Both the position numbers and the translations under genes were made by a program. From Xanthobacteraceae bacterium (lineage in GTDB: Bacteria > Pseudomonadota > Alphaproteobacteria > Rhizobiales > Xanthobacteraceae): a stretch of 64,000 nt of DNA. The stretch's first letter is position 1; each line of letters begins with the position of its first letter. A model generated the notes under the pieces. That model saw nothing but the letters and a program-made list of their open reading frames with translations, did no database searches and was not told the DNA's origin. The DNA lies in the NCBI GenBank assembly GCA_022841625.1, contig JALHRD010000013.1:24577-88576 (forward strand), written 5' to 3'. This document shows, one piece after another, positions 1,750 to 16,330 of the stretch.

Positions 1750-2160
1750 TCAATCCGGCAGGATGCACGGCACGACCTGTCGGCTGTGACGGCGGTAGAT
1801 ACGGAAATCCGAGTCAGTTGTCAGGAGGACCGCCCGCGGGACTGTCTCGCTCATGCGGACGAGACAAGCATCGGCAAAACTCATGGGGACGCTTGCATAT
1901 CGTCGCATGAGCGCCAGTACTTCCTCAAGATTGTCATCCAATCGAAACGCACAGGCAATCGTCTCACGAATGAGGAACTGAGAAAACGAGAGGCTGCCGC
2001 TTGGTCCTAGCAGGTGGAATACTTCGGATACGACAGCCTCGCATGTTCTCCAGGGCGGAGGATGCCGTTCGGAAATTGAACAGGCCCAGCGATGATTGGT
2101 GTCGCGGTCGGTGAGGATAGCGACAAGGAATCCTGCGTCAGCGAGGGCGTTTTCGGCCAT
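1750..2160 (-). CDS. vapC: PIN-domain toxin, VapC-like (type II toxin-antitoxin)
   Basis: 136-aa ORF with an acidic PIN-like N-terminus (LADAGFLVAILTDRD) and a C-terminal LLTTDSDF. It overlaps the upstream RHH ORF by 23 nt, the usual antitoxin-toxin arrangement. Confidence 0.78.
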   Translation of the reverse strand: MAENALADAGFLVAILTDRDTNHRWACSISERHPPPWRTCEAVVSEVFHLLGPSGSLSFSQFLIRETIACAFRLDDNLEEVLALMRRYASVPMSFADACLVRMSETVPRAVLLTTDSDFRIYRRHSRQVVPCILPD

Positions 2161-2395
2161 AGCCCGTGGCCTTGAGGTAATGCTTCTTGCGTGAGCTCAA
2201 ATCGGCAGGGAGGTTGCGGACAGAGCCGATGAGATCCGCGATAGCTTCTAGCGAAGCTGGCCGTTGCCGCGGAACATCCGGTGCGCGCGCCAATCGTTCG
2301 CGCACAATGTCCGACTTCGACAGCTTGCGCGCGCGCGACTCCGCCTCGATCTGGGCGACAAGGGTGTCGGGCAGGCGCACGGTCAGCGTTTTCAT
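2138..2395 (-). CDS. vapB: Ribbon-helix-helix (CopG/Arc-type) antitoxin, VapB-like
   Basis: 85-aa ORF. MKTLTVRLPDTLVAQIEAESRARKLSKSDIVRERL is a typical RHH N-terminus. It lies directly upstream of, and overlaps, the PIN gene. Confidence 0.75.
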   Translation of the reverse strand: MKTLTVRLPDTLVAQIEAESRARKLSKSDIVRERLARAPDVPRQRPASLEAIADLIGSVRNLPADLSSRKKHYLKATGYGRKRPR

Positions 2396-5205: not shown

Positions 5206-7083
5206 ATGCAAATGCGGTTCGACGTCATTGTCGTGGGCGGAGGCCATGCCGGCTGCGAGGCTGCGGCGGCCGCGGCGCGTATGGGTGCGTCGACCGCGTT
5301 GGTTACGCATCGGTTTACCACGATCGGCGCCATGTCGTGCAACCCAGCCATCGGCGGATTGGGCAAGGGCCATCTGGTGCGGGAGATCGATGCCCTCGAC
5401 GGCTTGATGGGGCGGGTGGCGGATCGCGGCGGTATTCAGTTTCGCGTTTTGAATCGCCGAAAGGGTCCCGCGGTGCGCGGTCCGCGCGCGCAGGCCGACC
5501 GCCGGCTCTATGCCGCAGCCATGCAAGCGGCGATCGCGGCAACTCCCAATCTGACCGTCGTCGAAGGTGAGGCCGACGATCTAATCGTGACCGGTGGCCG
5601 GGTGGCCGGGTTTCGGCTCGCCGACGGCCGGGTGCTTTTGGCTGGGGCCGTCGTGCTCACCACCGGAACTTTTTTGCGCGGGCTGATCCATATCGGCGAG
5701 CGACAGACGCCGGCCGGCCGGGTCGGGGAGGCGCCGGCGGCGGGTTTGTCGCTCAGCCTGGAACGGATCGGCTTTGCGCTAGGACGACTCAAGACCGGCA
5801 CGCCACCGCGGATCGACGGATCCACCATCGACTGGGCAGCGCTCGAGATGCAGCCTGGCGACGAGCCGCCGGAGCCGTTTTCGGTGATGACCGATCGGAT
5901 CGAGAACCGGCAGATCGAATGTGGGATCACCCGGACCACCGATGCGACGCATCGGATTATCCGCGGTAATGTCCATCGTTCGCCGATGTATTCCGGACAG
6001 ATCGCTAGCCGGGGCCCGCGTTATTGTCCCTCGATCGAGGATAAGATTGTCCGCTTCGGGGAGCGCGATGGGCACCAGATTTTCCTGGAGCCCGAGGGCC
6101 TCGACGACACCACGGTCTATCCCAATGGGATCTCGACCTCGCTGCCGGAGGAGGTCCAGACCGCGCTGGTCGCGACCATCCCAGGGCTTGAGCGGGCGCG
6201 GATTGTACGGCCGGGATATGCCATCGAATATGATCACGTCGATCCACGCGAGCTCAAGGCCACGCTCGAGACCAAGCGAATGCCGGGACTGTTTCTGGCC
6301 GGCCAGATCAACGGCACCACCGGCTATGAGGAGGCCGCCGCCCAGGGTTTGGTGGCGGGGCTCAACGCCGCGTCGAAAGCCGGTGGCGGCGCCGATATCG
6401 TGTTCGATCGGGCCGAGGGCTATCTCGGCGTGATGATCGACGATCTCGTCACCAAGGGGGTCAGCGAGCCCTATCGGATGTTCACGTCACGGGCCGAATA
6501 TCGGCTGACCCTGCGTGCCGACAATGCCGATCAGCGGCTCACCACGCGCGGCGTGGCGATCGGCTGCGTGAGTTCGGAACGGTGCGAGCGCCACGTGGCC
6601 AAGATGGCGGCGCTGACCGAGGTCCGCGCATTCGCTGAAGCGATGTCGCTCACACCGACCGAAGGCGCCAAGCATGGCCTTGCGCTCAATCGCGACGGCC
6701 AGCGACGCACGGCGTTCGAGCTACTGTCGTTCCCGTCTATCGGCGTTGCGGAGGTCGCGCGCATCTGGCCGCGCTTCAATACGTTTCACGTGAAACATCT
6801 CGCGCAGATCGAGATCGATGCAAAATACGATGTCTATCTTTCGCGCCAGGCGGCGGACATTGCAGCGTTCCGTCGCGACGAGAATCTCGAACTGCCCGAC
6901 GATGTCGACTACGGCACCGTCAAAGGTCTCTCGAATGAAGCGCGCGCCAAGCTTGCCGCGATCCGTCCGCGCACCATCGGTCAGGCCGGCCGGATCGACG
7001 GCCTTACGCCCGTGGCCCTGACTCTGCTGGTCGGCCACATCCGACACAAACGAAAATCGCGCGCGGTCCAAACTTCGGCATGA
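5206..7083 (+). CDS. mnmG: tRNA uridine 5-carboxymethylaminomethyl modification enzyme MnmG (GidA)
   Basis: 625 aa with the FAD motif [16 protein letters not shown], plus [16 protein letters not shown] and a C-terminal GidA-associated region. Confidence 0.97.
6782..6797. other. parS-like site CGTTTCACGTGAAACA (15/16 to consensus) inside mnmG
   Basis: Read directly. The central 14-bp palindrome GTTTCACGTGAAAC is intact. Confidence 0.7.
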
Positions 7084-12357: not shown

Positions 12358-13377
12358 CTACGGCCGTCGCGCCGCCATTGCCACCGCCAGCAACAGTCGC
12401 TGCACAATCGGCTCAGCAAGATCGGCGCACAACCGCGACTGCAAGGTCGCGTCGGCGATCTGGGTCATGGCGGTCTGTAGCCGCGCCGCCGACCAGGCGC
12501 GCAATGCGGCCTGTGCGAGCGGCACGCGGCTGAAGTGCAGCCACATGCCGCCGACCGCGGCGTCGGCCGATTGCCCCTCGTCGACCGCGAGCCGCGCCTT
12601 GTGCAGCAGGCTGGCGTGGCGCCCGGCCGCGAACAGGATCGCACCCGCTGAGGTGCCGGCGTTGCGCGCCTTGGTGAATTGGAACTCGACCTCGGGAAGT
12701 TTCCCGCCGAAGGCGGCATCGATCAGGGCATCGAGCGCCAGCGCCGAGGCGTCGGTCACCACCGCGGCCACGTCCTCCAATTCGACACGCTTTTTGCCAT
12801 AGGCATAGAGCGCGAGCTTCTGCAATTCGCTGCGGGACGCCAGCCGATCGCCGCCCAGGAGTGGCACCAGCGCGGCGCGCGCCTCGGGCGCGATCGTCAG
12901 CCCGGCGGCCTGCATCTCGGCATCGATCAGGCGCGGCAAGTTTTTTTCGTCGTCGGGATAGCAAGGCAGCACCGCGGCGTTTTTGGCGCTCTCGCAGAGT
13001 GCGCGCAGCGGCGCGTTCTTGCGCAATTCGCCGGCCTCGATCACCACCCGGCATTCTCTCGGGGCTGCGCCAAGCAGGGTCTCGACCGCGGGGGCGAGAT
13101 TGCGCGTGCTGGATTTCACCCAAACCGCGCGTCGGCCGCCGAACAGCGGAATGGTGTTGGCCTCCTCCACCAGCCGCGACGGGTCCGACGCAATCAGATC
13201 GCCCTCCATCCGCACCAGTGAGAACGGATCGTCGATGTTGTCGACCGAGGCGCGGATCAAGGCTTCGGCGCGCTCGCGCACCAAGCCGGCATCGGCGCCA
13301 TACACCAGGACCACCGGCTGCGCCGGGTTGGGCTTGGCGACGAAGGCGTCGATCTGGGCGGCTTTGAGTGCGGTCAT
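12358..13377 (-). CDS. holA: DNA polymerase III subunit delta (HolA)
   Basis: 339 aa. The N-terminus VVLVYGADAGLVRERAEAL..IPLFGGRRAVWV and the overall length and layout are typical of alphaproteobacterial HolA. It lies downstream of leuS, as in the conserved leuS-lptE-holA cluster. Confidence 0.88.
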   Translation of the reverse strand: MTALKAAQIDAFVAKPNPAQPVVLVYGADAGLVRERAEALIRASVDNIDDPFSLVRMEGDLIASDPSRLVEEANTIPLFGGRRAVWVKSSTRNLAPAVETLLGAAPRECRVVIEAGELRKNAPLRALCESAKNAAVLPCYPDDEKNLPRLIDAEMQAAGLTIAPEARAALVPLLGGDRLASRSELQKLALYAYGKKRVELEDVAAVVTDASALALDALIDAAFGGKLPEVEFQFTKARNAGTSAGAILFAAGRHASLLHKARLAVDEGQSADAAVGGMWLHFSRVPLAQAALRAWSAARLQTAMTQIADATLQSRLCADLAEPIVQRLLLAVAMAARRP

Positions 13378-13383
13378 GGAAGA

Positions 13384-13446
13384 GCGAATAGCGAATAGGG
13401 AGTAGGGAGTAGGGAGTAGGGAGTAGGGAGTAGGGAGTAGTCAGTA
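13384..13446. repeat. Tandem heptamers: (GCGAATA)x2 followed by (GGGAGTA)x6 plus one degenerate unit
   Basis: Read directly: gcgaata at 13384 and 13391; gggagta at 13398, 13405, 13412, 13419, 13426 and 13433; gtcagta at 13440. The array begins 6 nt upstream of the holA ATG. Confidence 0.9.
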
Positions 13447-13460
13447 CAGCAGAACGGCCA

Positions 13461-13502
13461 TACTTACTATTCGCTATTCGCTATTCGCTATTCGCTATTC
13501 GC
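13461..13502. repeat. Tandem heptamers (TATTCGC)x5 preceded by a degenerate TACTTAC; reverse complement of the GCGAATA units at 13384-13397
   Basis: Read directly: tattcgc at 13468, 13475, 13482, 13489 and 13496. The array ends 5 nt from the leuS stop codon (13508-13510). Confidence 0.9.
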
Positions 13503-13507
13503 TTTCT

Positions 13508-16330
13508 TTACGCCACCACATTGACGATCCGGCCCGGCACCACGATCACTTTTTTGGGCGGCTTGCCTTCGAGCGCGCGCTGGATGGCGTCGAGTGCGAG
13601 CACCGCCGCCTCGATGTCGGGATTCTTGGCGTCGCGCGCCACGGTGATGTCGGCGCGCTTCTTGCCATTGACCTGCACCGGCAACGTGACGGTATTTTCA
13701 ACCAATAGCGCGGGCTCGAGTTCCGGCCAGGGTTGGGTGGCGAGCACGGTTGTATGGCCGAGCGCCGCCCAGCATTCCTCGGCCAAATGCGGCATCATCG
13801 GATTGAACAGTTTGATCAGAATTTCGGCGGCTTCCCGCATCGCCCAGCGGTAGTCCGACGTCGGTGCTTGCTCCTGCGAACCGATCGAGTCTGAGAACGC
13901 ATTGGCGAATTCATAGAGGTGCGCCACCGCCACATTGAAGTGCAGCTTCTCGATGGCGTCCGATACTTTGGCCAAAGCGCCATGCGCGGCCTTGCGCAGC
14001 GTTTGGGCGCCCTCCCCGAATTGCACCGGCCGTTGGTCTGGCGCTGTTGCTGCCACCTCCGCCGCCTCGCCGACCAGCCGCCACAGCCGTTGCGTAAAGC
14101 GCCAGGCGCCCTGCACGCCGCGCTCGGTCCATTCGACGTCGCGCTCGGGCGGCGAATCCGACAGCATGAACCAGCGCGCCACATCGGCACCGTAGCTCGC
14201 GATGATGTCGTCGGGATCGATGACGTTTTTCTTCGACTTCGACATTTTCTCGATCGCGCCGATCTCGACCGGCGCGCCGGTCGCGGTCAGCTTGGCGCGG
14301 CGCTGATCGCCCTCGGTCTCGATCGTCACCGAAGCCGGCTCGACCCACTCGCCGTCCTTGGACTTGTAGGTTTCATGCACCACCATGCCCTGGGTGAACA
14401 GGCCGGCGAACGGCTCGTCCAGGCCGACATGGCCGGTGGCCTTCATCGCGCGGGTGAAGAAGCGCGAATACAGCAGATGCAAAATCGCGTGCTCGATGCC
14501 GCCGATATATTGGTCGACCGGCAGCCAGCGATCGACCACCGCGCGGTCGGTCGGCGCGCTGTCGTTCCAGGGGTCGGTGAAGCGCGCGAAATACCAGGAC
14601 GAGTCCACAAAGGTGTCCATGGTGTCGGTCTCGCGCCGCGCCGGCTTGCGGCACTGCGGGCAGGTCACGTCGCGCCAGGTCGGGTGGCGGTCGAGCGGAT
14701 TGCCGGGGCGGTCGAAACTCACGTCCTCCGGCAGGGTCACCGGCAGGTCCTTGGCCGGCACCGGCACCACGCCGCAACTGGTGCAATGGATCACCGGGAT
14801 CGGGCAGCCCCAGTAGCGTTGCCGCGAAATGCCCCAGTCGCGCAGCCGGTAATTGACCTGCCGCTCGGCCACTGGCCGACTCTTCTCCCTCTCCCCGCTA
14901 GCGGGGAGAGGGTTGGGGTGAGGGGGGCGCTCCACGGTCGCGCTTTGTCGAGAGCCCCCCTCACCCGACCTCGCTCCGCTCGGTCGACCTCTCCCCGCAG
15001 GCGGGGAGAGGTGAATCCCGTCAGACCGATAGGTCCTTTCCAATTTGCGTGCGACTTCCTCTTTTGCGGCTTCGACCGTCATGCCGTTGAGGTCGATGAA
15101 ATCGTTCTTTGAATTAATCAGCGTGCCGTCGCCGTCATAGGCGGTCTTGGCGATGACGAACGACTTCGGATCCTGCCCGGGCGGGCAGACCACTGGGGTA
15201 TTACCCAGGCCGTATTTGTTGACGAAATCGAGGTCGCGCTGGTCGTGCGCCGGGCAGCCGAAGATCGCGCCGGTGCCGTAGTCCATCAGGATGAAGTTCG
15301 CAACATAGACCGGCAATTGCCAGGTCGGGTCGAACGGGTGGATCGCCTTGATACCGGTGTCGAAGCCTTGCTTCTCGGCGGTCTCGATCGCTTCCTGCGC
15401 GGTGCCGCCCCGTTTGCATTCGGCGATGAAGGCGGCGAGCGCCGGATTTTTCTTCGCCGCCGTCTGGGCGATCGGATGGTCGGGCGCGACCGCGACAAAG
15501 CGCGCGCCGAACAGCGTGTCGCCGCGGGTGGTGAATATTTCGAGTTCGCGTTCGCCGGCCGGCGTGGTTTTCGGGTCGAGCGCAAAGCGGACCAACAGGC
15601 CCTCGGAGCGGCCGATCCAGTTCTTCTGCATCAGCCGCACTTTTTCCGGCCAGCGCTCGAGCGTGTCGAGCTTGGTCAGGAGGTCTTCGGCGAAATCGCT
15701 GATCTTGAGGAACCATTGCGTGAGCTCGCGCTGCTCAACCGGTGCGCCCGAGCGCCAGCCGCGTCCCTCGATCACCTGTTCATTGGCGAGCACGGTCATA
15801 TCGACCGGATCCCAATTGACCTTTGATTGCTTGCGCTCGACCAGCCCGGCTTTGAGGAAATCGAGGAACATTTTCTGCTGGTGCTTGTAATAGGCCGGGT
15901 CGCAGGTCGCGATCTCGCGCGCCCAATCGAGCGACAGCCCCATCGATTGCAGCTGCGCCTTCATCGCCGCGATGTTCTGGTAGGTCCAGGCGCGCGGATG
16001 CACCTTGCGTTCCATGGCGGCGTTCTCGGCCGGCATGCCATGGGCGTCCCAGCCCATCGGATGCAGCACGGTAAAGCCGCGCGCGCGCTTATAGCGCGCG
16101 ACCACATCGCCCATGGTGTAGTTGCGCACATGCCCCATGTGGATGCGCCCGGACGGGTACGGGAACATCTCGAGCACGTAATAGGTCGGCTTGGCGGGCT
16201 TGCCGTTGGCGGCGGCCTTTAGCTCGTCATTTGACGTCGCGAAAATGCCGGCAGCGTCCCATTTCTGCTGCCAGCGCGGTTCGGCGGTGCGGGGGTTGTA
16301 ACGGTCGGGTTTGTGGGGTTCGGCGGTCAT
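13508..16330 (-). CDS. leuS: Leucine--tRNA ligase (LeuRS) carrying an in-frame 42-codon repeat insertion
   Basis: 940 aa with the HIGH-type motif [13 protein letters not shown], plus [16 protein letters not shown] and KMSKSKKN. The insertion is listed as a separate repeat feature. Confidence 0.97.
14887..15012. repeat. Nested-palindrome (REP/MITE-like) element embedded in frame in leuS
   Basis: It has three parts. CCCTCTCCCCGC-TA-GCGGGGAGAGGG occupies 14887-14912. GGGTGAGGGGGGC (14916-14928) pairs with GCCCCCCTCACCC (14954-14966). ACCTCTCCCCGC-AG-GCGGGGAGAGGT occupies 14987-15012. The total is 126 bp, or 42 codons, translated as [42 protein letters not shown]. Confidence 0.75.

Follow-up and report, generated by a model that had tools for sequence, protein, structure and literature searches.

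A BoxC-like composite palindromic repeat read in frame in the leucyl-tRNA synthetase gene of a Xanthobacteraceae bacterium, in a loop that is recurrently occupied among relatives

The window, i.e., the whole stretch of 64,000 nucleotides of DNA from a Xanthobacteraceae bacterium that was analysed, contains the leucyl-tRNA synthetase (LeuRS) gene leuS. The encoded protein matches LeuRS clusters at 73–86% identity (BLASTP), their Pfam domains being tRNA-synt_1, tRNA-synt_1_2 and Anticodon_1, and is 91% identical over the aligned columns to the ortholog P0002; its PDB matches are the LeuRS of E. coli and T. thermophilus. The KMSKS motif is found at residues 695–699, the invariant motifs are kept, and holA lies downstream of leuS, which is the usual gene neighbourhood. 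The class I core, the CP1 editing domain, KMSKS, the anticodon-binding domain and the neighbourhood being all in place, the host gene is that of a bacterial LeuRS.

Within leuS, the stretch 14887–15012 consists of two perfect palindromes with 12-bp arms, placed around a hairpin with a 13-bp stem (Table 1). This anatomy had been described in a first-pass annotation, made by a model from the sequence, and a direct check of the sequence bore it out, including the observation that the TAG in the centre of the first palindrome is avoided by the frame (it is out of frame and read GCT AGC); the block was also said to be exactly 42 codons, and the length of 126 bp is correct, but the codon register is not, being shifted one base from the codon boundaries. 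All of the block lies inside one 940-aa ORF on the minus strand, as had been proposed. Since the ORF is intact in an essential, syntenic gene, and since indels within the element are frame-compensated, the ribosome must, judging from the sequence, read through the element.

Table 1. Features of leuS and of the palindromic insert (window coordinates).
Feature	Position	Strand	Description
leuS (leucyl-tRNA synthetase)	13508..16330	-	940 aa, intact ORF, holds the insert
Whole indel	14879..15037	-	residues 432-484, 53 aa (RTYRSDGIH...SGEREKS)
BoxC/TMECO-like unit 1	14887..14924	+ (template strand of leuS)	CCCTCTCCC-CGCTAGCG-GGGAGAGGG-TTG-GGGTGAGGG
Terminal palindrome, gene-distal (3' in leuS)	14887..14912		CCCTCTCCCCGC-TA-GCGGGGAGAGGG; encodes PLPASGER
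Inner hairpin	14916..14966		perfect 13-nt arms GGGTGAGGGGGGC (14916-14928) and GCCCCCCTCACCC (14954-14966); 25-nt loop
BoxC-like unit 2	14958..15011	- (coding strand), inverted orientation	20-nt second loop
Linker mini-hairpin (GACC...GGTC)	14967..14986		20 nt; belongs to the element
Terminal palindrome, gene-proximal (5' in leuS)	14987..15012		ACCTCTCCCCGC-AG-GCGGGGAGAGGT; encodes LSPPAGRG

Chance does not account for the palindromic structure of the block: when 3 mismatches are tolerated, its pattern occurs twice in the window against 0.01 occurrences expected from shuffles. The 141-nt region has a predicted folding energy of -100.4 kcal/mol for RNA (z = -7.7) and of -51.5 kcal/mol for DNA (z = -7.2), and none of 200 shuffles was as stable in either case. 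An Rfam search of the element returned only sub-threshold matches to generic miRNA hairpins, so the element falls under no curated RNA family, and no intrinsic terminator or promoter was found in or near the insert.

By its motif content, the block is a non-coding, GC-rich composite repeat in which two BoxC/PIT/TMECO-like units are inverted relative to each other; each unit has a hairpin and a G-rich third block, and the arms of the inner hairpin are the third blocks of the two units. BoxC/PIT/'TMECO' repeats, known from E. coli and from other Proteobacteria, are of the intrastrand-triplex type (Holder et al. 2015, PMC4666352, where earlier work by Bergler, Bachellier and Maher is cited); the family shows extreme copy-to-copy conservation, has no known transposase and is linked to local genomic instability (PMC4666352). 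Its published pattern comprises CCCTCNCCC, a loop of 3–6 nt, GGGNGAGGG, 3 nt and again GGGNGAGGG, and at five E. coli K-12 loci the BoxC units are paired in inverted orientation and belong to two sub-types (PMC4666352). The motif grammar of the window element is nearly the same, and its units are likewise an inverted pair of two sub-types. The C-rich block and its complement are present (CCCTCTCCC at 14887–14895, GGGAGAGGG at 14904–14912), and unit 1 also has the 3-nt second loop and the G-rich block (TTG and GGGTGAGGG, 14913–14924), whereas the second loop of unit 2 has 20 nt and holds the linker mini-hairpin. The first loop, however, comprises 8 nt (CGCTAGCG) instead of 3–6, six of which are paired (CGC/GCG), extending the stem to 12 bp and leaving a 2-nt loop; the strict published pattern has no match in the window, and among the loci compared it matches only in L075. 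The E. coli K-12 copies were reported to be always intergenic (PMC4666352), whereas the window element lies inside the leuS ORF of an alphaproteobacterial host and is read through in an essential gene. The purine-motif triplex is a feature of the E. coli repeats; for the window element, the analysis covered the sequence and the hairpin energetics.

Intergenic copies of the composite were found in related Hyphomicrobiales (L011:6681-6842, L014:9073-9195, L001:18100-18240, L004:14255-14372, L022:4684-4814), and the architecture of unit 2 is that of intergenic units with a long linker (L001:18104-18156, L004:14257-14301, L022:4684-4733). The composite was also matched in at least 120 metagenome stretches. 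Among alphaproteobacterial plasmids or chromids, 235 records together have 773 matching places, and nearly all of these 773 fall under no annotated gene. None of the 80 metagenome stretches that were taken out is a leuS copy, and only three are in frame in real CDSs; an in-frame copy was also found in an annotated gene of the finished genome of a cultured Azospirillum brasilense strain. Thus, the family is overwhelmingly intergenic elsewhere and is read through in other genes only occasionally. The first-pass annotation had taken the block for a dispersed, mostly intergenic GC-rich palindromic repeat, with other copies to be expected in this or related genomes, and the copies in Hyphomicrobiales, metagenomes and plasmids or chromids agree with this view. 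No second copy of any sub-family was found in the 64-kb window, the part of the host genome that was covered, beyond which further copies or a second leuS without the insert may lie; a non-exhaustive search identified no transposase near the copies examined; we infer the mobility of the window's repeat family only from the dispersal of its copies. The intergenic copies resident near leuS in relatives represent a sub-family with a 9–10-bp stem and not the CGC-extended one, which is found in every leuS allele of type A (see below).

In practice, segments of this kind give rise to 'conserved' peptides that are spurious, and they cause gene calls in long-read assemblies to be split.

The true indel in LeuRS exceeds the 126-nt block named in the first-pass annotation: a low-complexity loop of 53 residues (P8, G8, R8, S8) takes the place of the 6-residue KETRGG of insert-free orthologs, a net gain of 47 codons. 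On the E. coli LeuRS, the insertion site falls between ...AIADKL and KVNYRLRDW, and the loop connects the final CP1 helix with the β-strand (β-linker) that returns to the catalytic core. The junction of CP1 and the core, named earlier as the site, is indeed the place; the insert falls right on the C-terminal boundary of CP1, the editing domain, N-terminal of a conserved 21-residue stretch. Structure prediction, which had been suggested as a check, predicted an unstructured loop: in the AlphaFold 2 model, which is poor overall (mean pLDDT 66.5), residues 436–482 have pLDDT values of 27–32 and no secondary structure, directly after the helix 419–432. Such a surface loop would be permissive, and extra residues would, for that reason, be tolerated by the enzyme.

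Alignment of the closest LeuRS orthologs (P0002–P0008, 80–86% identical, BLASTP) revealed no insert in them, as expected for a lineage-specific insert. Nevertheless, the notion of a one-off landing was not upheld, since 36 of the 120 nearest ortholog clusters (about 30%) have an insert in this loop, which runs from the last CP1 helix to the β-linker; other indel sites in the alignment are few. Homologous segments of non-palindromic DNA in the orthologs had been named as evidence that would count against a repeat, and the ortholog segments proved to be palindromic at the DNA level. The inserts belong to two unrelated hairpin families, one BoxC-like (types A and C and solo units) and one resembling CGTC-tagged REPs (type B). 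Type B inserts (RPRESGDP...LDSRLRGNE; in L085, CGTCCCCGCGAAAGCGGGGAC, with CGTC at the first hairpin) look like CGTC REP dimers; decayed or truncated relics are present in P0026, P0113, P0013 and P0129. The window allele has a short variant of the linker mini-hairpin, with 4 nt gone from each arm compared with most type A alleles, and this symmetric deletion is common only to it and L001. A contig search with LeuRS found relatives that are 48–77% identical, and, among the matches listed, the insert was present only in L080, a 2.3-kb fragment; a search with the insert and its flanks returned only LeuRS fragments and revealed no closer relative or donor of the window allele. Several long-read assemblies call leuS as fragments near the insert loop. 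A link to small GIY-YIG nuclease genes, which occur near some loci, was considered and rejected; one of them adjoins the empty allele L213, and there is none in the window.

Across lineages, the palindrome arms are 0.99 identical and the inner stem 0.94, compared with 0.55 for the insert centre and 0.42 for the loops, whereas leuS itself is 0.81 identical in the same comparison (0.67 at third positions). All 14 third-codon positions in the palindrome arms are invariant, against a 33% divergence at the other synonymous sites of leuS. The gene-proximal arms are invariant among eight leuS alleles save for mismatches in L083 and L080, and the gene-distal arms are identical in seven of the eight, with a 2-nt loop that varies freely (TA, GC, AA). 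In the inner hairpin, conservation is 94% over the proximal 11 bp, and the changes of the distal stem are compensatory between lineages; altogether, seven base pairs have compensatory double changes, and the linker mini-hairpin shows compensatory CG<->UA changes at alignment columns 66/88. Alleles differ in the frame in which the inner arm is read (GEG vs RVRG), and the frame is restored downstream. As judged by these comparisons, the constraint is on the nucleotide sequence of the stems and not on the peptide. Candidate causes of the stem invariance are self-correction among the four arm copies of the element, conversion from genomic copies, or selection; alternatively, the arms could be invariant through having been replaced, repeatedly and recently, by copies of a conserved source family.

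Several features of the allele bear on its origin. The left junction, RLE-N/R-T-F/Y, is leuS-specific: it is common across clades, where it varies synonymously, and its N-T-F/Y part is absent from seven non-leuS copies. The window and L001 have common -4/-4/-1 indels, though their LeuRS backbones belong to different clades. The 5' flank of the window allele is anomalously diverged, and comparison of filled and empty alleles indicated an excess of flank divergence (L212/L213, p=0.0098; left flank of window/L002, p=6e-8), compared with p=0.27 in the empty-vs-empty control; the left flank of the window also has a private 4-aa indel, so that locally faster evolution could give the look of an imported patch. 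L212/L213 is the only clean pair of a filled and an empty allele; there, 46 nt replace 16 nt, and no target-site duplication (TSD) was found there or at the window junctions, where only an ambiguous GGAG/GGAGAA overlaps the element end. In the neighbour-joining tree, the window LeuRS nests in an otherwise insert-free clade as the sister of P0002. The leuS-specific junction, the common derived indels and the excess flank divergence suggest an old filled allele that was passed on by recombination rather than a fresh insertion; this suggestion draws on two filled/empty pairs and the tree, and the searches found no donor lineage.

The preferred reading, to which we would assign a probability of roughly 0.7, is that a composite BoxC-like repeat lies in frame in a tolerated loop between CP1 and the core, as an old allele spread by recombination. 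A BoxC-type filled allele with the left junction described above would have arisen long ago in Xanthobacteraceae-like bacteria, would since have diversified into types A and C, solo units and decayed relics, and may have passed from lineage to lineage as the highly conserved flanks in leuS recombined homologously, by which route the lineage of the window most likely obtained its copy; an unrelated CGTC-type REP would have come into this loop in a separate event, at a point three codons further along. The alternative, that a resident repeat or MITE transposed afresh into leuS of the window's lineage, the same-site cases in other lineages being separate hits that passed a selection for a permissive loop, or else a target preference, appears unlikely, although it has points in its favour: the position of the window LeuRS inside an insert-free clade, the dispersal and abundance of the repeat family and the perfect stems of the window copy, which would fit a young one, are consistent with it, and two unrelated hairpin families in one loop mean that at least two independent entries did occur. 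A fresh insertion is opposed by the lack of a resident copy of any sub-family in the 64 kb, by the copies beside leuS in relatives being of the other, 9–10-bp-stem sub-family, by the leuS-specific junction with synonymous variation across clades, by the excess flank divergence and by a clean pair that shows a 16-nt to 46-nt replacement and no TSD. The landing of a repeat or MITE in this lineage, as read in the first-pass annotation, needs revision in view of the junction and indels common across clades, the diverged 5' flank and the lack of a TSD, a transposase or another sign of MITE-type transposition in the searches made.

Could the hairpins be kept for a role in leuS at the nucleic-acid level, such as a slowing of the ribosome at the CP1/core boundary that would aid co-translational folding, a tuning of LeuRS mRNA stability or expression, or a recombination-promoting DNA triplex or cruciform? 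The arms more conserved than the surrounding essential gene, with their frozen third positions, the compensatory changes of the variable stems, the extreme stability of the fold (z = -7.7) and the convergence of two unrelated hairpin families on a single loop between domains, filled in 30% of the related clusters, all point that way, but the closest relatives and 70% of the orthologs do without the insert, decayed relics exist, no terminator-like or promoter-like signal was found, and extreme conservation is family-wide, including intergenic E. coli BoxC, so that conservation of the arms need not mean a leuS-specific function; such a role seems rather improbable. Its most specific form, a selected device at the CP1/core boundary that would have been recruited repeatedly from two repeat families and would pause translation while the inserted editing domain folds, or otherwise tune LeuRS expression, would account for stems better conserved than the essential gene in which they lie, and it is a shade more doubtful again. 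Idiosyncratic insertions in LeuRS are known in general, the loop lies at the hinge of the mobile CP1 domain, and LSPPAGRG and PLPASGER are conserved as amino acids, which would accord with a lineage-specific loop or domain adapted for tRNA binding, editing control or moonlighting, the palindromic DNA being incidental. This reading is very improbable: the conserved peptides coincide exactly with the palindrome arms, where synonymous sites are frozen too, identical DNA is present intergenically, and the loop is low-complexity and predicted to be disordered; as a protein domain, it was rejected because the loop centre is unconstrained (55% identical, below the synonymous sites of the gene) and the inner-arm frame differs among alleles. 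A repeat mis-joined into leuS during assembly or binning of a metagenome-assembled genome is hardly credible at all. A single NCBI contig has the exact LeuRS protein of the window, and leuS calls near the loop are fragmented in several long-read assemblies, but at least 36 independent clusters, drawn from JGI, ENA and NCBI, have homologous inserts in frame at this codon position, with the reading frame preserved in every case, and the in-frame copy in the finished A. brasilense genome also argues against an artefact.

In-frame palindromic repeats have precedents. Rickettsia palindromic elements (RPEs), as Ogata et al. are cited in PMC3733652, are about 100–150 bp long and lie in frame in ORFs that remain functional, including genes of the translation apparatus, where the peptide is tolerated as a surface segment. 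With a palindromic repeat in frame in an intact ORF, they are the best analogy for the behaviour of the insert, as the first-pass annotation had recognised; at the same time, RPEs come from obligate intracellular Rickettsia, whereas the window element is GC-rich and BoxC-like, belongs to free-living soil Hyphomicrobiales and occupies a loop, one site of one gene, that is filled recurrently. The sequence families of RPEs are presumably unrelated to it. GTAG/CGTC-tagged REPs occur in genes as singletons or dimers of about 7–43 aa and as clusters of up to 82 aa, and are found in the aminoacyl-tRNA synthetases IleRS (E. litoralis ELI_13550, residues 467–488) and GlyRS-beta; two Xanthomonas species have different REPs at roughly one and the same site of recB (Di Nocera et al. 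2013, PMC3733652). The type B LeuRS inserts of the relatives resemble the CGTC dimers of this group, whereas the window palindromes bear no such tag (with the palindrome ends marked by bars, they read TTC|ACC...GGT|CGA and AAC|CCT...GGG|AGA), LeuRS is not in the list of Di Nocera et al., and that study describes neither a hot spot for two families nor stems more conserved than the host gene (PMC3733652). The first-pass annotation knew of no described case in an aminoacyl-tRNA synthetase of this lineage; REPs inside synthetase genes are thus already published for IleRS and GlyRS-beta, though not for LeuRS. Br-REP1 and Br-REP2 of Bradyrhizobium and Rhodopseudomonas are three-palindrome composites found in 3'-UTRs and intergenic regions, and closely related genomes have them in strongly differing abundance (Hahn et al. 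2016, PMC5082802); they share the composite architecture and come from a sister group, but have other consensus sequences (CCGGAATCTCGAGATTCCGG and others) and are not reported inside genes (PMC5082802). Like REPINs and MITEs, the window element is an inverted doublet of hairpin units, foldable as one long hairpin, non-autonomous and dispersed; it has inverted terminal palindromes, but no GTAG head, and neither a RAYT or transposase gene nor a terminal TSD was seen. Apart from Holder et al. 2015, literature searches on the sequence of the element, on the peptides that it encodes and on BoxC inside genes yielded nothing.

Given the RPEs and the REPs in IleRS and GlyRS, what is unusual here is the hot spot. 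The finding extends the read-through of repeats in essential genes to a repeat of the BoxC/triplex-motif type, previously reported only between genes, and to free-living soil Alphaproteobacteria, the phenomenon having been familiar mainly from the RPEs of Rickettsia and from tagged REPs. A single loop between LeuRS domains would be a natural, highly permissive insertion site, with 10–60 extra residues in about 30% of the related enzymes, which may be useful for the engineering of loops and tags and for reading length variation in phylogenies of aminoacyl-tRNA synthetases. Stems frozen inside a diverged gene would also offer an unusually clean natural experiment on how repeats are maintained, be it by conversion, self-correction or function.

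Direct reading of the window sequence confirmed the two perfect palindromes, the hairpin between them, their coordinates and arms, and the leuS reading frame reported in the first-pass annotation; the central TAG of the palindrome is out of frame in leuS. The 126-nt block described there is read in frame, but it lies one base off the codon boundaries, and the real indel is larger, with 53 residues in place of six and a linker mini-hairpin that also belongs to the structure. The element structure is far above chance expectation: 0.01 occurrences of the palindrome pattern would be expected and two are present, and the computed folding energy of the element region is -100.4 kcal/mol for RNA (z = -7.7) and -51.5 kcal/mol for DNA (z = -7.2). 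Nothing resembling a terminator or a promoter was found at the insert. Alignment to the solved E. coli and T. thermophilus leucyl-tRNA synthetases (LeuRS) bore out the proposed location at the junction of the CP1 editing domain and the catalytic core, placing the insert between the last CP1 helix (end ...AIADKL in E. coli) and the β-strand linker back to the core (KVNYRLRDW). AF2 modelling, based on a shallow alignment and mediocre overall (mean pLDDT 66.5), predicted a helix at residues 419-432, after which residues 436-482 lack secondary structure (pLDDT 27-32); no other low-confidence stretch in the protein is as long, and the result agrees with the suggested loop, in which Pro, Gly, Arg and Ser make up 60% of the composition.

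Features of the window leuS region and related repeats at other loci (L handles, DNA loci of relatives and other genomes)
Feature	Position	Strand	Remark
leuS ORF, 940 aa	window 13508-16330	minus	unmistakable LeuRS
holA	window 12358-13377		
leuS-holA gap, 131 bp	window 13377-13508		no lptE
Palindrome CCCTCTCCCCGC-TA-GCGGGGAGAGGG	window 14887-14912		perfect
Inner hairpin arms GGGTGAGGGGGGC and GCCCCCCTCACCC	window 14916-14928 and 14954-14966		perfect pairing
Linker mini-hairpin, 20 nt	window 14967-14986		
Palindrome ACCTCTCCCCGC-AG-GCGGGGAGAGGT	window 14987-15012		perfect
Indel, residues 432-484	window 14879-15037		replaces KETRGG of insert-free orthologs
KNDF insertion, residues 408-411	window 15098-15109		CP1 domain
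Second variable LeuRS site, residues ~35-48	window ~16190-16230		
9-10-bp-stem sites	L001 6310-6451, 13327-13377, 18104-18238		
9-10-bp-stem sites	L209 7079-9174		
Intergenic copy	L011 6681-6842		directly 3' of stop codon
Intergenic copy	L014 9073-9195		
~54-bp imperfect direct duplication	L014 9010-9250		7 mismatches
Intergenic copy	L001 18100-18240		parB-parA spacer; leuS of this genome also filled
Intergenic copy	L004 14255-14372		cultured Bradyrhizobium
Intergenic copy	L022 4684-4814		Methylobacterium
In-frame CGC-extended copy	L091 ~5289-5322		ValRS, 1018 aa; ...SPSPRGRGEGKGEG... ahead of LTRDPDVLDTWFSS
In-frame CGC-extended copy	L101 ~2317-2351		membrane protein
In-frame CGC-extended copy	L125 ~2026-2059		MiaB/MtaB-like enzyme, linker between N-terminal and radical-SAM domains
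In-frame full composite	L211 1965-2085		Azospirillum brasilense MTCC4038 plasmid p4, NZ_CP032343.1; WP_059399692.1

As proposed, the insert is missing from the nearest orthologs, LeuRS protein clusters P0002-P0008 (80-86% identity by BLASTP, 84-91% over aligned columns). The idea of a one-off landing in leuS did not survive, since 36 of the 120 best LeuRS clusters carry extra residues in the same loop, between RLE and R/A-P-V; LeuRS indels outside the loop are few in these 120 clusters, mainly low-complexity linkers. The inserts comprise type A (window-like, LSPPAGRG...), type C (locus L084; the type A scaffold combined with the palindrome CCTCCCCCT and blocks of GGGTGGGGG), solo inserts (single BoxC-like units, as in L212, CCCTCCCCCGC-CT-GCGGGGGAGGG-TA-GGGTGGGGG), decayed relics, and type B (L085), a pair of CGTC-headed hairpins unrelated to the others, whose peptides (RPRESGDP...LDSRLRGNE) agree with published CGTC REPs (Di Nocera et al. 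2013, PMC3733652). The left junction RLE-N/R-T-F/Y is common to types A, C and solo, whereas type B is placed after K-E-T-R, which indicates at least two independent entries a few codons apart. In the LeuRS tree computed with the insert columns left out, filled and empty alleles are interleaved, and the window protein is nested in an insert-free clade. The second variable LeuRS site, near the N-terminus, has 21-29 extra residues with repeat-like peptides (SPQGGGGPALRSPQGEGG; SRRSRQGEG) in clusters P0110 and P0047; repeats may have inserted there as well. The loop is spanned by many LeuRS fragments (P0127-P0163; 83-222 aa) on ENA contigs of up to 415 kb, which indicates that gene callers split leuS near it, possibly because long reads have indel errors in G/C runs or because the frameshifts are real.

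The predicted other, mostly intergenic copies do exist in relatives. The same composite lies between genes at five loci of other Hyphomicrobiales, and the CGC-extended sub-family (12-bp stem, as in the window) occurs in at least 120 metagenome stretches; 80 loci inspected among those listed were mostly intergenic or at gene ends, none (0/80) in leuS. BLASTN against plasmids and chromids gave 773 places in 235 records, mainly from Rhizobium, Sinorhizobium, Azospirillum, Shinella and Sphingobium, nearly all outside any annotated gene; an Aminobacter copy occupies an operon-internal spacer starting at the stop codon of an ABC-transporter gene. The L014 copy is bracketed by a duplication of the 3' end of the adjacent yggS-like gene, possibly a footprint left when elements of this kind enter gene ends or rearrange them. 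Three further genes are read through CGC-extended copies, all three (3/3) with a genuine coding GC3 signal on either side. The full composite is also in frame in an annotated bio-operon α/β hydrolase, BioH-like (insert peptide ...VPRPSGERVAPKAPGEGG...NPLTLTLSPGGRGDG...), of Azospirillum brasilense MTCC4038, and since this genome is the finished one of a cultured bacterium, a metagenomic artefact is ruled out.

In each half of the block, a G-rich third block comes after a hairpin. The window plus-strand half, CCCTCTCCC-CGCTAGCG-GGGAGAGGG-TTG-GGGTGAGGG, is built like the BoxC/PIT/"TMECO" intrastrand-triplex repeat of E. coli, CCCTCNCCC-N3-6-GGGNGAGGG-N3-GGGNGAGGG (Holder et al. 2015, PMC4666352), the longer stem (CGC/GCG added) being its sole departure; the opposite-strand half has a second loop of 20 nt. 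According to the same study, all 23 BoxC copies of E. coli K-12 are intergenic, five loci combine two sub-types as an inverted pair, as the window element does, and no transposase association was found. BoxC-type repeats have so far been described between genes only. No Rfam family covers the element, and the literature search for its characteristic peptides or for intragenic BoxC returned no paper. In-frame palindromic repeats are an already published general phenomenon, other synthetases included: they are established as Rickettsia palindromic elements (as cited in PMC3733652), and the catalogue of intragenic GTAG/CGTC REPs of Di Nocera et al. (2013, PMC3733652) also records different REPs at about the same site of recB in two Xanthomonas species. 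IleRS and GlyRS-beta are on that list; LeuRS is absent from it.

The order leuS-lptE-holA, with lptE overlapping the leuS 3' end, is usual in relatives (L001, L083, L084, L206-L209); L002, like the window, has no lptE there, and in L212 and L213 a small GIY-YIG ORF takes its position. Units with a 9-10-bp stem (CCTCTCCCCTTGTGGGAGAGG) are abundant around relatives' leuS, whereas none were found in the 64-kb window and L002, so close lineages differ sharply in repeat load.

The window insert is one of the alleles of a polymorphism that recurs at a LeuRS hot spot and is probably old and exchanged. The CP1/core junction does tolerate an intergenic-type repeat in frame; transposition is only a putative route, and several observations argue against a fresh landing of a resident repeat or MITE. 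The N/R-T-F/Y junction is missing from seven non-leuS copies and varies synonymously among lineages; lying outside the element, it points to an old common origin of types A, C and solo within leuS. The window and L001 have the derived -4/-4/-1 indels in common, with LeuRS backbones in different clades. Filled and empty alleles show excess divergence near the site (L212/L213, 10% vs 6.4%, p=0.0098; left flank of window/L002, 28% vs 12%, p=6e-8), unlike the empty-vs-empty control (p=0.27). Outside the leuS element, the 64-kb window has neither a unit of any sub-family nor a perfect hairpin of at least 12 bp; intergenic units beside relatives' leuS belong to the 9-10-bp-stem sub-family, and leuS type A alleles are all CGC-extended. 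The clean L212/L213 pair has 46 nt in place of 16 nt, with no target-site duplication.

The window left-flank divergence could also reflect local rate acceleration, a possibility kept alive by the private KNDF insertion, which precedes the repeat insert by 24 residues in that flank, at a site reading INSRF----LDG in 119/119 other homologs; this indel itself adds to the unusual divergence. With moderate confidence, the most economical reading of these sequences is that an old filled leuS allele persists and would travel between lineages by homologous recombination via the highly conserved leuS flanks. No donor lineage of the window allele was found.

Eight type A leuS inserts were aligned and compared pairwise over seven lineages. 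Mean nucleotide identity is 0.99 in the four palindrome arms, 0.94 in the inner stem, 0.84 in the linker, 0.55 in the insert centre and 0.42 in the two-nucleotide loops; the host gene has 0.81 at all positions and 0.67 at third positions. All 14 third-codon positions within the arms are invariant (283/283 pairwise matches), and seven pairs of the linker hairpin and distal inner stem are altered on both sides and still paired. The inner arm is read in an allele-dependent frame, as GEG in both the window and L001 and as RVRG in the remaining alleles, and frame is regained via -4/-4 in the linker arms, symmetrically, and -1 in the centre; because the indels are frame-compensated, we infer that the insert segment is translated. 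The frozen arms, compensatory pairs and shifting inner-arm frame point to constraint on DNA or RNA structure and sequence rather than on the peptide, and the palindrome stems are more conserved than leuS, the essential gene that hosts them.
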